64,000 bases of DNA, from positions 736,001 to 800,000 of the forward strand of contig CBDCVK010000010.1 in the NCBI GenBank assembly GCA_965223005.1, written 5' to 3'. The stretch comes from Terriglobia bacterium. GTDB taxonomy: Bacteria > Acidobacteriota > Terriglobia > JAJPHL01 > JAPKYU01. The translations under genes were made by a program, and so were the position numbers. The notes under the pieces were generated by a model. It saw only the letters and a program-made list of their open reading frames with translations, did no database searches and was not told the origin of the DNA. Shown here in pieces: positions 3,001-64,000 of this stretch (positions are counted from its first letter, which is position 1; every line of letters starts with the position of its first letter).

Positions 3001-4146
3001 GGAAGTCAGCTCGCTGTTGGCTTCCGCCAGGACTTCGCCCGACTCCTGGTTCACGACGTCGGCCACCGTGAACGCCCCTTCCAGATCGTGGAGGGAAATC
3101 TCCACCTGCTGCACTCGGCCCTTCTGCAGTTCCTTGAGTACCTGCGGCGTGATTTTCTTGCCAGCGTGCATCAGGACTTCCCCGCTGCGGGGCTGCAGGA
3201 CCTGATGAGAAAGCTTCATACCCAACAGACCTTCCGAAACCTGCCAGTATAGCTTCTTGTCCTCGAGCCGGATCCGCTCCACCTGGTAGAAGCAGCGCAG
3301 GATCTCCTCGTCGTTCTTCAGGCCCAGGGCGCGCAGGAAGATCGTTCCCAGGAACTTACGCTTGCGGTCAATGCGTACGTAGAGCAGGTTCTTGGCGTCG
3401 TATTCAAATTCCACCCATGAGCCCCGGTAAGGAATAATCTTGCCCAGAAAGTAGGTGCGTTGGTTGGCAACATCAAAAAAGACTCCGGGAGAGCGGTGCA
3501 GCTGGTTGACGATGACGCGCTCGGTTCCGGTGATGATGAAGGTCCCGTTTTCGGTCATCAGCGGGACCTCGCCGAAAAACACTTCCTGCTCTTTGATGTC
3601 GCGGATGCTCTTCGCGCCGGTATCAGGGGCCTTTTCATAAATGGTGAGCCGGATGGTGACCTTGAGCGGTGCCGAGTAAGTCATGCCCCGTTCCTGGCAT
3701 TCGGCCACGTCGTATTTCAACTGCAACCCGACCGGATCCCCGCACTTGTTGCAGAAGGCGACCACGTTGGTGTTGAAGGTGCCACAGCGAGAGCACAGCA
3801 CTTCTTGCCCAATGGCAAACGGATTGGTGATGATGGTGGCCGCGCAGTTCTGGCAGGTGGAGCGCAGGTGGTGAAGGCCCTTGAGGTTGCCGCACTTGCA
3901 CTCCCAGTTGCCGATCGAGTATTCCACGAACTCCAGCGACGAGATGCCGCGGAAATCGGTGATGGGAAAGACGGAATTGAACACCGACTGCAACCCGAGG
4001 TCCTCCCGCTCGCTGGGAAGTCGGTCCATCTGCAGGAAGCGGTCGTAGGACTTCTTCTGGACCTCGATCAGGTTCGGGATGGGAACCGTGGTGCCGATCT
4101 TGGAAAACTCAATCCGCTCGTGCGGGCCGTGCAAGCTAGTTTGCAT
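1..4146 (-). CDS. rpoB: DNA-directed RNA polymerase subunit beta (3' end beyond window)
   Basis: Not in ORF track because there is no stop in the window. Manual translation from ATG at 4146: [28 protein letters not shown]; Rif region [51 protein letters not shown]; at window edge [19 protein letters not shown]. Confidence 0.99.
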
Positions 4147-4856: not shown

Positions 4857-5384
4857 TTATTCGGCAAACTTGTTGGCCTCGACAGCCTGATTAACCACCG
4901 ACGCCAGACTGCGGGCGACCGCTGTGACTGCAGACGCCACTCCCCGGGCCGGTGCGTTCAACATGTAGAGCACTCGTAGGATTAGCTCTTCCCTGCCCGG
5001 AAGAGCGGCCAGCTCGGCAATTTCCTGAATCGAGATCGCACGGCCCTCTACCACACCGGCCTTGAAGACGAATGAGGGATTCGCTTTGGCGTAGGCGACC
5101 AGGATTTTGGCCAGCGCCACCGGATCCTTCTCGGTGTATGCCACAGCGGTGGGGCCCACCAGGTTCTTCAGAGCGCTTTCGGCAGAAGTCCCGCGCGCCG
5201 CCAGCTCGGCCACTGTGTTCTTGACCACCCGGTATCTGCCCCCCGCCGTGCGCACCTGCTTGCGCAATTCGTACTCCTGAGCAACGGTGATCTTGGAAAA
5301 CTCAGAGACCAGGACGTTGGGCACGTGTTCCAGATCCGCCCTCAGCCCTTCCACTTCCTTCCGTTTCTGCTCGCGGTTCTTCAT
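4857..5384 (-). CDS. rplJ: 50S ribosomal protein L10
   Basis: LRKQVR..YRVVKNT..GPTAVAY..LAALPGREEL; synteny. Confidence 0.97.
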   Translation of the reverse strand: MKNREQKRKEVEGLRADLEHVPNVLVSEFSKITVAQEYELRKQVRTAGGRYRVVKNTVAELAARGTSAESALKNLVGPTAVAYTEKDPVALAKILVAYAKANPSFVFKAGVVEGRAISIQEIAELAALPGREELILRVLYMLNAPARGVASAVTAVARSLASVVNQAVEANKFAE

Positions 5385-5498
5385 TGTTGAGGCTGCTCGA
5401 TCAACTCCGACTCTTCAGGGCCACTCGCCCCACCTTCATCCACGACCGGTCTTCTGCAAGGCCTCTGGAAACCCACCGGGTTGCGAGACCGCGCAGCG

Positions 5499-6203
5499 CT
5501 AAGGCCCAGCTTCCAGTACCGCTACGTCAAGCGAAATCCCAGGAGTCATCGTCGCCGACAGGGTGACGCTGCGCACGTACTTACCTTTGGCCGCAGCCGG
5601 CTTGGCTTTGATGACGCTGCTAATCAGGGTGCCAGCATTTTCTACCAGTTTGTCTGTCTCGAACGAGATCTTGCCGACCGGCGCGTGGATGACACCGGTT
5701 TTGTCGGTGCGGAATTCCACCTTGCCGGCCTTGATCTCACGAACGGCGCGCGCCACCTCGAAGGTCACCGTGCCGGTCTTCGGGTTGGGCATCAGGCCGC
5801 GGGGTCCGAGCAGCTTGCCCAGCTTGCCGACCGACTTCATCATGTCCGGGGTGGCGACGACCGCCTCAAACCCTAGCCAGCCTTGCTGGATCTTGGTGAC
5901 CACATCATCGCCCCCCACCCAGTCGGCGCCGGCTTCCTCAGCTTCGCGTACTTTCTCGCCGGAGGCGATCGCCAGCACGCGCTTGGACTTTCCCAGCCCG
6001 TGCGGCAATACCACCGTTCCCCGCACCATCTGGTCGGCGTGCTTGGGATCGACTCCCAGCCGCAACGCCACCTCCACGGTTTCGTCGAACTTGGCGTACC
6101 GGATCTTCTTCAGCAACGGAACAGCTTCTTCCAGCTTGTACGTTCGAGCTTCCACCTGCTGGCGGGCCTTCACGTAGTTCTTGCCTTGGCGATGGTTGGG
6201 CAT
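5499..6203 (-). CDS. rplA: 50S ribosomal protein L1
   Basis: [48 protein letters not shown]. Confidence 0.99.
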
Positions 6204-26156: not shown

Positions 26157-28040
26157 ATGCCTGATAAACCCATGCCCGATAAACGGCGGCGATATCGTTT
26201 CCTGACGATAGCGGTCCTTGCCTTCCTGGGCTTGCTGACGGCAGCCTGGCTCGCGCGCATGTCGCATGCCGAGGAAAAGCCCACGGCCAGCGAGGCCCAG
26301 GCGTTCCTCGAGCAGGCGGAAGGTCGCCTACTCGAGCTCTGGGTCAAAGCCTCGCGAGCCTCCTGGGTGCAGGCCAACTTCATCACCGAGGACACCGAGC
26401 GGTTGGCCGCCGCCGCTCACAAGGACGTCCTCGCCGCCACCACTGAACTGGCCCATGCCGCCACTCGCTTCGACGGATTGGCGCATTCTCAAAGTGTGGC
26501 CGACGACGTGGCCCGCAGGTTGAAACTGCTCAAGCTGTCACTGACGCTGATGGCCCCCAACGTCCCGGCCCAGCAGAAGGAGCTGACTGACATCGCTGCC
26601 TCGCTGGAGAGCGATTACGGAAAAGGGCGCTATTGCCCGGATGGGAAACAAGGCGAGTGCCTCGACCTGAGCCAGATGCGACGCATCCTGGCCAACAGCC
26701 GCGACGCGGAGAAGCTGCGCAAGGTCTGGGTCGGCTGGCGGACCGTCTCACCGCCGATGCGTCCCCGCTACCAGCGCCTGGCGGAACTGGCCAACCAGGG
26801 CGCGCGTGAACTGGGCTTCGCCGACCTGGGCGTGCTCTGGCGCTCCAAGTACGACATGCCCCCGGACGAGTTTACCGCGGAGGTTGAGCGGCTTTGGCAG
26901 CAGGTCCGGCCCCTCTATGAAGCGCTGCATGCCCACGTCCGCGCCTCGCTGGCTAGCCAGTATGGCAGTGACCTGGTTCCCGAGGATGGCCTGATCCCGG
27001 CGCACCTGCTCGGCAACATGTGGAGCCAGGAATGGAGCAACATCTACCCGCTGGTGGCCCCCAAGCAGAGTGACCCTGGCTTCGACCTCACGGCCCTGCT
27101 GCGCGCCAAGAAAGTGGACGAGCGGGAGATGGTCCGCTACGGCGAGCGTTTCTTCCTTTCGCTGGGCTTTGAGCCGCTGCCCGAGACCTTCTGGCAGCGC
27201 TCGCTGTTCACCAAGCCGGCCGACCGCGACGTGGTCTGCCATGCCAGCGCCTGGGACATTGACTTCGACCAGGACCTGCGCATCAAGATGTGCATCGAGA
27301 TTGTCGCCGAGGATTTCTACACCATCCATCACGAGCTGGGACACAACTTCTACCAGCGCGCCTACCGGCAGCTGCCGATGCTCTACCGCGACGGCGCCCA
27401 CGACGGCTTCCACGAAGCCGTCGGCGACGCCATCTCCCTGTCCATCACACCGTCGTACCTGAAACAGATTGGGTTGCTGGATAAGGTGCCAGACCAGCGC
27501 GCTGACCTTGGACTGCTAACGAAGCTGGCCCTGGAGAAGATTGCCTTCCTCCCCTTCGGCCTGCTGATAGACCAGTGGCGCTGGAAGGTTTTCTCGGGCG
27601 ACATCCGCCCCGCTGACTACAACACTGCCTGGTGGGAGCTAAGGAAACGCTACCAGGGCATCGCGCCCCCGGTACCACGCAGCGAGGCCAACTTTGACCC
27701 CGGAGCCAAGTATCACATTCCCGCCAACGTTCCCTACACCCGCTACTTTCTGGCCACCATCCTTCAGTTCCAGTTCCATCGCGCACTGTGCCGCGAGGCC
27801 GGCTACGAGGGGCCCCTGCACCGCTGCTCCATCTACAACAACAAGGCAGCGGGCCAGAAGCTCCGCAACATGCTCGCCCTGGGCCAGAGCCGTCGCTGGC
27901 CCGACGCCCTCGAAGCGCTCACCGGCCAACGCCAGATGGACGCCACGGCCATCCTTGATTACTTCGCCCCGCTGAAACGCTGGCTCGACCAACAGAACAA
28001 GGCGCGAAAAGTCGGATACCGCCAGCAGGGCGCTTCTTGA
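26157..28040 (+). CDS. M2 family peptidyl-dipeptidase (ACE-like metallopeptidase)
   Basis: [40 protein letters not shown]-terminal signal/TM segment. Confidence 0.96.
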
Positions 28041-61621: not shown

Positions 61622-61795
61622 AGTGCCATTCTAGTGCATTTGCCGTGAGCCCTGTCGGGAGCCTTTGCCGCAGGTGCCGATTCGAGCGTGAATCTAATCG
61701 CCTACTATTTGCATCGTACTCATTGCCTGAAAAAAACGGTGAAATTGGAAGTGGCGGGGTGGCCCGCTTCTTCACAAGACCTCAAGGAGGTCACT

Positions 61796-62287
61796 ATGAA
61801 AAAGCAAGCTCTGACGGTTCTGGCGATGGCGGCTCTCTTGGCCATGGGGTCAGTGGCCTCTCTCCGCGCAGATAGCGGCGGGGAGGTCTGGGCGGACATC
61901 CCGTTTGATTTCATAGTCGGGAATACAGCGTATTCGGCCGGCAGCTACGCTATTCAGTACACCAACCCGCAGGGTGTGTTCGTAATTCATATTGGAGAAG
62001 ATGAAAGCCGAAGCTTGCTGCTCTGGTCCAACACCGTGCCAGCCAAATCGAGAGAGGATTATTCTCCGAGGTTCATCTTCAACCGGTATGCGGATCAGTA
62101 TTTCCTCACCCAGGTCTGGGCCGGAGGAGACATCGATGGGCGCGAACTCCCGGAGCTTCAGCGGCAGCGTGAGCTGGCCAAGGAGTATTTGGCCGAGAAC
62201 GTGTCGGTGCCTCAGGTAGTCTTGGACGCTGCTCTGCGATCAGTACCCGTGGGATCAGCGAACAACCCTGCCGGAGCAGACGACTGA
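61796..62287 (+). CDS. exported hypothetical protein
   Basis: AAGGAGG SD, signal peptide, ADIPFDFIVG..AGSY..FIFNRYADQYFLTQVW. Confidence 0.8.
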   Translation: MKKQALTVLAMAALLAMGSVASLRADSGGEVWADIPFDFIVGNTAYSAGSYAIQYTNPQGVFVIHIGEDESRSLLLWSNTVPAKSREDYSPRFIFNRYADQYFLTQVWAGGDIDGRELPELQRQRELAKEYLAENVSVPQVVLDAALRSVPVGSANNPAGADD

Positions 62288-62475
62288 TCCTATGAGTCCC
62301 GGCGAGGGCGCATCCAAAGGCAGCGTTCCGGCATCTTACGAAGAGGTGTCCGCGGAGGGCGCAGATTGCACAGATTTTTTCGTCGCCCCTTCAACCTGTG
62401 CTATCCGCAGATACCTCCCCTTTGAGAGACTGGCTAGGCCCCACACAAGGATGGCCGCAGGAGGTGATCGCACCA

Positions 62476-63468
62476 ATGGATCCAAACGCTACCCTGAGAC
62501 ATAGAAGCCTTCGCCTGGGAGCAGGCGTCTGGCTCGCCGCGCTGCTGCTGGCCGGGCTTGTGCCTGGCGCCCCGGCGTCGCAACGAAAGCTGTCCATCAA
62601 AGTTGAAAAGAAGCCCAAACAAATCTCGCCCGGTTACGGCTCAAAACCCTTTGACGTCACACGCCATCTGATTCCCCTCCGGGATATTCAGGGCGGGGGG
62701 CCCCCGAGGGACGGCATTCCTGCGCTGGACTCTCCGAAGTTTGTCACGGTGGCACAGGCGGACCGGGTGCTGAGGGATTCCGACCTGGTGCTGGGGGTCG
62801 AATTCCAGGGCGTGGCCAAGGCCTACCCGATTCGCATCCTCAACTGGCATGAAATCGTGAACGACCAGGTGGGCCGGCAGCCGGCGCTGGTCACCTGGTG
62901 ACCGCTGGCCGGCGCGGGCGTCGTGTACGATCCGCTGATCCAGGGCCGACGGCACACCTTCGGCGTCTCCGGCCTGCTCTACAAGCGCAATGTGCTGATG
63001 TACGACAGGCAGACGGAAAGCCTGTGGTCGCAGCTGCTGGCTCGGGCGGCCACCGGTACTCTCACCGGAACCCTCCTCCGCCTGTTGCCTTCGGTACAGA
63101 CCACTTGGGGGAGCTGGAAGAAACAGCATCCCCGAACCCTGGTGCTGTCGTTCGACACCGGTCACCGGCGGGACTATTCCTGGGATCCGTTTGCAGAAGC
63201 TTCTTTGGACCGGAGGCCAGCTCTGGTCATCACCCTGAACGGGAAAACGAAAATCTATCCCTTTTCGCAGCTCAAGAAGCAGGTGAAGAAGACCGGCTCC
63301 CCGGTAACCGACCAGTTCGCCGGGAGGACCATCACTGTCGAATTCGATGCCAAAGACAAGACAGCCCGCGCCCGGGACGCGAGCGGCTCCCTAGTGCCGT
63401 CCTACGTGGCATTTCTGGCCAACGCGCGAGCCTTCTATCCGGACGCGCCCCGCTTCAAATCGAAGTGA
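62476..63468 (+). CDS. DUF3179-family protein with in-frame UGA (probable selenoprotein)
   Basis: ORFs 62398-62901 and 62923-63468 are in the same frame; GGPPRDGIPALD, KAYPIRILNWHEIVND, VTW*PL, FGVSGLLY..MYDRQTESLWSQ, TTWGSWK..HP. Confidence 0.88.
62902..62943 (+). promoter_or_regulatory. candidate bacterial SECIS hairpin
   Basis: GCGGG-cg-UCG-[UGUA]-CGA-UCCGC (62914-62935), possible lower CUGG/CCAG pairing; folded by eye. Confidence 0.55.
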
Positions 63469-63524: not shown

Positions 63525-64000
63525 CTACTTGCCGCCAAAGATTTCCCGGAACGCTTCCGCCAAGTCGCGAAGCGCGCTCTCCCCATCGCCTTCAAAGCTG
63601 GACCCGTGCATGATGGCGAGTTTCGTGGGCTTCAGGGCGGCCAGCTTTTGAAATATCTTGTCGGTGTAGTGAGTGTAGGGGGCGTAGTCGGCGAGAAAGC
63701 CCGCCTGGTACTCCTTCATCGCCTCGCGCGATCGCCCCACCACGTCGGACCTCGTCAGAGGCTCGACTTTGCCCACCTGATGGAACAGGTCCGAGCATAG
63801 CAACGTCTTCGTTGTTTCCTCAAACAGCAAGGCGGCGTCCCAGCCGTGGGGCAGGTGCGGCGTCCGGCATAGGCGAAAGCGGCGCTTTCCGGTGGGCAAC
63901 ACTTCTCCCTCGGTCATCCCCCGGGGTGGCCGGATCGAGAAGTCAGTCAGACTTACCGCTGCCCCCAGATCGCTGCAGACGGGTTGGGCCTTGGGGGCTA
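63525..64000 (-). CDS. MBL-fold di-iron protein (ODP/FprA-like), 5' end beyond window
   Basis: [28 protein letters not shown]; frame is open to the window edge. Confidence 0.85.

Follow-up and report, generated by a model that had tools for sequence, protein, structure and literature searches.

Introduction

Selenocysteine (Sec)-containing DUF3179 proteins are recognised in the literature, as a preliminary description of the locus studied here had stated: they are listed as predicted selenoproteins in PMC9312934, in the 'Predicted' part of its prokaryotic selenoprotein table, and in PMC13188914. The tables of both papers give the motif as UxxC/T, and both credit the listing to PMC1976440; the term DUF3179 has no match in the part of PMC1976440 available to us. 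RefSeq names members 'DUF3179 domain-containing (seleno)protein', and the family is large, a search at E ≤ 0.001 giving 14,465 cluster representatives. Neither a fold nor a function nor a UxxA form appears in the accessible portions of the DUF3179/PF11376 literature, which likewise give no activity for any DUF3179 protein; BSepDB, bioRxiv supplements or structure-classification databases may hold such information. The term 'UxxA' is absent from the main text of PMC13188914. One Acidobacteriota genome is recorded as using Sec (PMC12013277). Outside the family, the MsrA of Clostridium oremlandii is a Cys-free enzyme with a single Sec that is recycled by glutaredoxin (PMC4479559).

Here we analyse a DUF3179 gene near one end of a 64,000-nucleotide stretch of DNA from a Terriglobia bacterium, referred to throughout as the window. 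Recoding itself is not new for DUF3179; what is new here is a putative UxxA, Cys-free form and a core predicted to resemble Rieske domains while lacking the cluster ligands.

Results

A DUF3179 reading frame interrupted by a single TGA

The frame at 62476–63468 contains one internal stop, the TGA at codon 142 (context ..LVTW-TGA-PLAGAGVVYDP), and gene calling with table 11 divides it into two ORFs in the same frame, one ending at 62901 and the other occupying 62923–63468 (features in Table 1). The earlier proposal that the two are one frame broken only by this TGA is borne out: read-through gives 330 residues, and the Pfam DUF3179 match spans the TGA. That match scores 240.6 bits, where the cut-off is 27 (E 3e-71), and is the sole Pfam match at E ≤ 0.001; neither a PMSR nor a SelR profile matches, and NCBIfam gives no match at E ≤ 0.1. 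The full-length translation is devoid of Cys, and His occurs only at positions 9, 64, 125, 160, 218 and 230.

Table 1. Positions in the window of the features of the DUF3179 locus
Feature	Position	Strand	Details
Shine-Dalgarno-like AGGAGGT	62459..62465	+	10 nt 5' of ATG
Putative single CDS, DUF3179 (seleno)protein, 330 aa, Sec at 142, Cys-free	62476..63468	+	terminal TGA
Probable Sec-pathway signal peptide, residues 1–34	62476..62577	+	hydropathy and sequence, A-P-A before S35
DUF3179 Pfam PF11376 match, residues 78–298, across the TGA	62707..63369	+	profile search
Predicted Rieske-like beta domain without [2Fe-2S] ligands, residues 111–211	62806..63108	+	AlphaFold2 pLDDT 94, VIA-align Z 9.4
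W124-H125-E126..N129-D130 motif	62845..62865	+	invariant, 140-sequence alignment
In-frame TGA (probable Sec142), first Cys of the family CPLC motif	62899..62901	+	homologue alignment
U-P-L-A motif (UxxA)	62899..62910	+	usual family motif CxxC; UxxC/T in listed Sec members
Candidate bacterial SECIS, 8-bp stem, one bulge	62914..62935	+	loop CGUGU 62922–62926, −8.2 kcal/mol

The Met start agrees with nine close N-terminal halves, each of 141 aa and beginning at the same Met. The N-terminal segment, previously described as signal-like, indeed has a basic/hydrophobic/A-P-A layout, with an 11-residue hydropathy maximum of 2.5, and low pLDDT in the AlphaFold2 model is confined to these 34 residues. 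A hydrophobic N-terminal stretch is also present in 86 of 97 Cys homologues. No conserved twin-Arg was found in the segment, and a lipoprotein signal is ruled out in a protein without Cys. The GTG that opens the second ORF lacks a Shine-Dalgarno sequence, and the product of that ORF lacks a signal peptide. A promoter/terminator scan gave no signal above shuffles. A genome-wide change of code (TGA as Trp or Gly) was rejected, since TGA is the normal stop for 11 of the 31 recognised genes of the window; it also ends the DUF3179 gene itself, and Trp is encoded by TGG.

Relatives are interrupted at the same column

Alignment of homologues at this column, proposed earlier as a check for Cys or TGA, returned both. 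Column 142 is Cys in 118 of the 120 nearest intact homologues (CxxC in 117/120), the best of which, among the 120 matches listed, is 61% identical. Relatives at 79–98% identity are all split: each of the 14 clusters at this level breaks at the TGA column, as had been anticipated for standard annotation, with 10 N-halves ending ..VTW and 4 C-halves, some of these relatives sitting on contigs of 0.5–4.9 Mb. When short proteins were searched, 32 of 120 matches listed stop exactly before the column and 30 of 120 begin after it, counts that may include halves truncated by contig ends. Split protein records carry neither residues 142–149 nor the type of stop codon. Among the best 80 of 588 GTDB stretches, 81 DUF3179 matches span the motif; the codon at the column is TGC or TGT in 75 of these and TGA in six (L001, L002 twice, L003, L005 and L026). 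The closest DUF3179 loci in the same sample of 80 are mostly from Terriglobia/Acidobacteria, and the nearest named match of the window's ribosomal protein L1, at 83% identity, is an Acidobacteria protein. On both counts the host is probably a member of the Acidobacteriota.

A quick tree, built from 85 N-terminal columns of 114 hand-chosen rows from loci and proteins, places the window gene in an 11-row clade (SH-aLRT 98) in which every row is split. Both halves are constrained within the close clade, and the family motifs are intact on both sides as originally described: family-conserved columns vary in 3 of 26 cases against 27 of 80 for other columns in the N-half (p 0.04), and in 2 of 38 against 39 of 142 in the C-half (p 0.002). 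One recoded protein is supported because the split recurs at one column throughout the clade, TGA recurs elsewhere and both halves are constrained. We conclude from these comparisons that UGA142 is very probably recoded as Sec; the reading of the locus as one probable Sec-containing, exported DUF3179 protein, divided by gene callers, is well supported.

The ribosomal protein L1 relatives P0245 and P0251 (96% and 84%) pair with the split DUF3179 halves P0126 and P0166 (86% and 70%), a pairing that suggests vertical descent of the split gene with the host lineage. Two of the TGA loci are of more complex make-up. L002 carries tandem DUF3179 genes (3187–4131 and 4893–5948) with TGA at both motifs (3370 and 5304); the first, a divergent paralogue whose hairpin differs (loop GGUU), lies between MerR, AhpD/CMD and Crp genes. 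In L005 (207–8467), a TGA-type DUF3179 gene is found among genes for a DF-family (seleno)protein, MerR, an HMA protein, an ECF sigma/zf-HC2 anti-sigma pair and Crp, and the same stretch holds a Rieske plus cytochrome b/c pair. The Clostridia label of L005 may be wrong, since the locus contains an Acido-Lenti-1 RNA and clusters with L002.

A putative UxxA motif in a Cys-free protein

The window gene, with UxxA in a Cys-free protein, falls outside the listed UxxC/T motif and is therefore a variant of DUF3179 selenoproteins. All six other TGA matches are UxxC (best 80 of 588 loci). Across the family, 138 motif instances drawn from 149 diverse representatives (12 proteins were unmatched by the search pattern) comprise 118 CxxC, 11 CxxT, 3 CxxA and 6 others, and locus L051 has a Cys-type gene with CPLA. 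The CxxT and CxxA instances imply that the first position matters most, the second being dispensable in some members. The absence of any other Cys remarked on in the preliminary description holds for the whole protein, and this tally supplies precedents for a missing second Cys. Judged by its sequence, UxxA without any Cys in the protein appears to be a new form.

At 68 strongly conserved columns the protein departs from the family twice, with C145A (family 99% C) and Y239F (100% Y). Compared with the 120 nearest homologues, S147A is a further departure (98% S). Only P0123, at 98% identity, also has Y239F; P0124–P0126 lack it.

A candidate SECIS hairpin and the search for Sec machinery

The hairpin immediately 3' of the UGA spans +13 to +34, with its loop 20 nt after the UGA and G at loop position 2. 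The bacterial SECIS rules of PMC13188914 (Fig. 2) specify a loop of 3–9 nt with G within the first two bases, a stem of 4–16 bp, a spacing of 16–37 nt and an energy of −7.5 or below, and the hairpin falls within them in our own implementation (not bSECISearch). The preliminary description had identified the right bases and drawn them in the less favourable of two folds: the CGUGU-loop fold, at −8.2 kcal/mol, places the loop GU at +22/+23, and the UGUA-loop fold, at −7.1 kcal/mol, places it at +24/+25. In a 66-nt context the inner-pair probability is 0.63–0.70 for the former and ~0.25 for the latter. In the same numbering, the loop GU of E. coli fdhF falls at +20/+21.

Although the published rules hold, the hairpin is weaker evidence than had been implied. 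Of 200 random TGAs, 47 pass the same version of the rules anywhere and 17 at the same spacing; folding-energy z-scores of +0.3 to +1.3 against shuffles, for four UGA-proximal stretches, put its stability at chance; and covariation analysis, suggested earlier as a check, found no two-sided pair change among the seven TGA genes (RNAalifold and pair counts). Five of the seven TGA genes have a rule-passing hairpin with its loop at 19–23 nt, compared with eight of the 75 Cys genes; L003 and L026 are the two failures among the six other TGA genes. Hairpin cells are paired in 44 of 49 cases (89.8%) over seven sequences, against 22–55% in slid controls, and the hairpin is preserved with G-U and G-C replacements; the V-V-Y-D codons dictate part of the stem core. 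Synonymous identity over codons +1 to +11 of six TGA genes, a comparison that omits the divergent L002 paralogue and in which pairs are not independent, reaches 104/139 (0.75) against 0.48 gene-wide and a maximum of 0.64 over 246 non-overlapping windows elsewhere. In 15 GC-rich Cys genes the increase at this place is more modest (0.63 versus 0.53). The candidate SECIS is consistent with recoding, not proof of it.

Genes selA, selB and selD are absent from the 57 ORFs scanned within the 64-kb window, as is tRNA-Sec. Rfam detected no tRNA-Sec or SECIS family at gathering scores in the window and six loci, and none at E ≤ 10 around the TGA.

A predicted Rieske-like fold without cluster ligands

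The AlphaFold2 model of the full protein is confident (pLDDT 91.7) and mostly beta, and Rieske proteins top its structural ranking (Z 6.5). With the central domain of the predicted model alone, VIA-align gives Z 9.4 and an r.m.s.d. of 3.0 over 94 aligned residues to carbazole dioxygenase ferredoxin. Ranks 1–44 for this domain are Rieske-domain chains, assigned by title or known complex with a few titles leaving the chain unnamed, and the next fold follows at Z 4.6. Residues 111–211 superpose on Rieske-type and cluster-less Rieske-fold proteins (3gce, 2qpz, 1vm9 and 3dqy; NirD-type 3c0d) at Z 9.0–9.4 and r.m.s.d. 2.6–3.5 over 91–96 aligned residues, but with 6–9% identity. Foldseek also ranks Rieske ferredoxins first for the central domain, at non-significant E-values, and returns no significant match with the whole model. 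Sequence searches of the PDB with three profiles found no related solved structure, profile comparisons with Rieske proteins gave no sequence-level link, and an ESM Atlas search with a natural Cys homologue gave no usable match. No thioredoxin or Msr fold is among the structural matches listed.

By its model, the protein is Rieske-like in fold, yet not a Rieske [2Fe-2S] protein. A manual register would put D177 and T180 in place of the second Rieske ligand pair. The alignment to 2qpz pairs model 10–110 with chain 2–96 (92 aligned) and, if sequential, maps Sec142 to chain residues 24–36; because this lies before the first ligand of 2qpz, Cys44, Sec142 would not be a cluster ligand. The Sec motif instead sits on a beta-hairpin in the model, and the strand with the invariant W124-H125-E126..N129-D130 motif is hairpin-paired with the strand ending at U142. 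His125 and Glu126 are candidate active-site partners of Sec142. The C-terminal domain, residues about 243–316 (63205–63425), gives weak WWE-like matches (Z 3.7–5.2).

Fusions and gene neighbourhoods suggest a likely thioredoxin partner

Our fusion scan covered those 71 of the 149 representatives that exceed 385 aa. A thioredoxin/redoxin-type domain is present in 12 of them, in every case with WCxxC; one fusion lies below Pfam cut-offs. The fused domains are found on either side of DUF3179, and most fusions have an N-terminal hydrophobic segment. Twelve of 80 loci (best 80 of 588) have msrB or msrAB no more than 3.2 kb away. Ten of these belong to one Nitrospina-type lineage and are convergent; in the other two, L045 and L064, msrAB directly follows the DUF3179 gene on the same strand. 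AhpD/CMD genes likewise occur in 12 of these best 80 of 588 loci, and thioredoxin/redoxin neighbours in three of six annotated plasmid contexts viewed, of 27 found. A thioredoxin-recycled periplasmic oxidoreductase is suggested because of the WCxxC fusions and the msr and AhpD neighbours.

The surroundings of DUF3179 domains vary further. In a Thiothrix plasmid (L083, 1573–5855), the DUF3179 gene is divergent from genes for a GDCCVxC (seleno)protein, a thioredoxin-domain protein and cytochrome c peroxidases. Of the 71 long representatives (from P0369–P0453), 34 have an N-terminal carboxypeptidase-regulatory-like domain, ~250 unassigned residues and then DUF3179; others carry SLH, fn3 or VTT domains.

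In the window, the neighbours of the DUF3179 gene are uninformative on function, and no msr gene lies near it. The upstream ORF (61688–62287, forward strand) has a signal-like segment, no Pfam or NCBIfam match and no relative in the best 80 of 588 loci. The convergent ORF (63525–64000, reverse strand), cut by the end of the window, has a weak ODP-family metallo-beta-lactamase match (E 0.005) that is below cut-off. Farther away, 4857–56463 holds origin-proximal dnaA, dnaN, mnmE, gidAB and parAB, a tuf/tRNA/rplKAJ cluster and dnaK-dnaJ. A gene for an M2 peptidase, angiotensin-converting-enzyme-like, at 26157–28040 adjoins a kinase-TPR gene.

Discussion

We propose that UGA142 is read as Sec, aided by the in-frame hairpin at +13 to +34, and that the product would be a DUF3179 selenoprotein of 330 residues that leaves the cytoplasm via the Sec pathway. 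Its core would be a Rieske-type beta domain that has lost its cluster ligands, with Sec142 on a beta-hairpin distinct from the site that once held the cluster and, by strand register, facing the invariant His125 and Glu126. The selenolate would attack an oxidised substrate, which may be a sulfoxide, a peroxide or a disulfide. The oxidised selenium would then be reduced by a separate WCxxC partner of thioredoxin/TlpA type or via a dimer, such external recycling replacing the intramolecular bond possible in CxxC and UxxC members. Granted recoding, a periplasmic oxidoreductase of 1-Cys/1-Sec type is the probable identity of the protein; with recoding itself counted in, its chances are a little better than even. 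Of the original suggestion of an exported single-Sec redox or metal-binding protein, the export and Sec parts are supported by sequence, and between the two functions we infer a redox role in preference to metal binding.

The alternatives differ in how much of this they accept. That the TGA is a true stop, marking a pseudogene or a two-gene split, or that it encodes another residue such as Cys or Trp, is very improbable. The lack of Sec machinery in 64 kb speaks for such a reading, as does a SECIS that is weak evidence taken alone, but a nonsense mutation or true two-gene split does not fit because the break is inherited, occurring at the same column in many lineages, both halves are constrained, the downstream GTG has neither a Shine-Dalgarno sequence nor a signal peptide in its product, and the interruption cuts through a compact domain of the predicted model; the use of TGA as a stop and of TGG for Trp in the window argues against another residue. 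Recoding could also be real in a clade of normal UxxC selenoproteins of which this species carries a recently altered or decaying allele, UxxA being no stable adaptation. C145A, S147A and Y239F do co-occur, the last only in this gene and its nearest relative, and every other TGA gene in the sample retains UxxC. Against this, 66 of the 68 strongly conserved columns are retained, there is neither a frameshift nor a further stop, the hairpin is intact, a change from TGC to GCC needs two base changes, and intact Cys members with CxxA exist; we regard a decaying allele as improbable, if distinctly less so than a true stop.

Somewhat likelier than a decaying allele, and still unlikely, is a recoded periplasmic protein that binds or transfers a soft metal or metalloid (Hg, Cu or As) with the selenolate, His125 and Glu126 as ligands. 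MerR-family regulators lie within about 5 kb in 5 of the best 80 of 588 loci, including the TGA loci L002 and L005, and the same 80 loci include HMA/MerT-type genes in 3, ArsR in 12 and ArsM-like genes in 5; moreover, CPLCG resembles a metal knuckle, and 13 of 68 members give weak zinc-ribbon matches (best E 0.09). However, CxxT, CxxA and UxxA proteins drop one ligand while keeping the first position, the repeated fusion to WCxxC thioredoxin points to a redox cycle, and no metal-resistance gene adjoins the window's copy. On this evidence we favour the periplasmic oxidoreductase.

The analysis repairs a gene that callers split throughout an Acidobacteriota-type clade, and it provides leads for a predicted selenoprotein family: a predicted cluster-less Rieske-like fold, a likely WCxxC thioredoxin partner and a naturally occurring form in which a single reactive residue is left. 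If the proposed mechanism is true, the window lineage would represent DUF3179 reduced to its essentials, Cys-free and with a single Sec, and would offer the clearest test of the family's chemistry, and a catalytic Sec off the cluster site on a Rieske scaffold would be a new redox-enzyme architecture. More tentatively, and with chances well short of even, DUF3179 as a whole might be an unrecognised class of periplasmic thiol/selenol oxidoreductases, with a cluster-less Rieske fold, a Cys/Sec-His-Glu site on a different hairpin and recycling by TlpA-type thioredoxin, possibly serving extracytoplasmic methionine-sulfoxide or peroxide repair.

Compared with the listed DUF3179 selenoproteins, the window gene belongs to the same PF11376 family and shares the TGA at the first Cys of CPL(C/T) and a candidate SECIS just 3'; it differs in being UxxA and Cys-free and in belonging to an Acidobacteriota-type subfamily of about 316–330 aa. 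Unlike Rieske [2Fe-2S] proteins, it is missing the CxH/CxxH cluster ligands and has an extra N-terminal GGPPxDGIP segment and a C-terminal domain. Thioredoxin-fold CxxC oxidoreductases carry their motif at a helix N terminus; the predicted model places the DUF3179 motif on a beta-hairpin. PilB is a thioredoxin-fused periplasmic Msr, and DUF3179 likewise fuses to WCxxC thioredoxin and neighbours msr genes. The window protein may work in the manner of a 1-Cys Msr or peroxidase. The likeness to MsrA and MsrB is a functional analogy only, the window protein having no PMSR or SelR match and an unrelated predicted fold. Within that analogy the nearest parallel is the 1-Cys-type MsrA of C. oremlandii: both proteins have a single Sec, putative in the window protein, and no Cys, and the MsrA is recycled by an external thiol reductant (PMC4479559).
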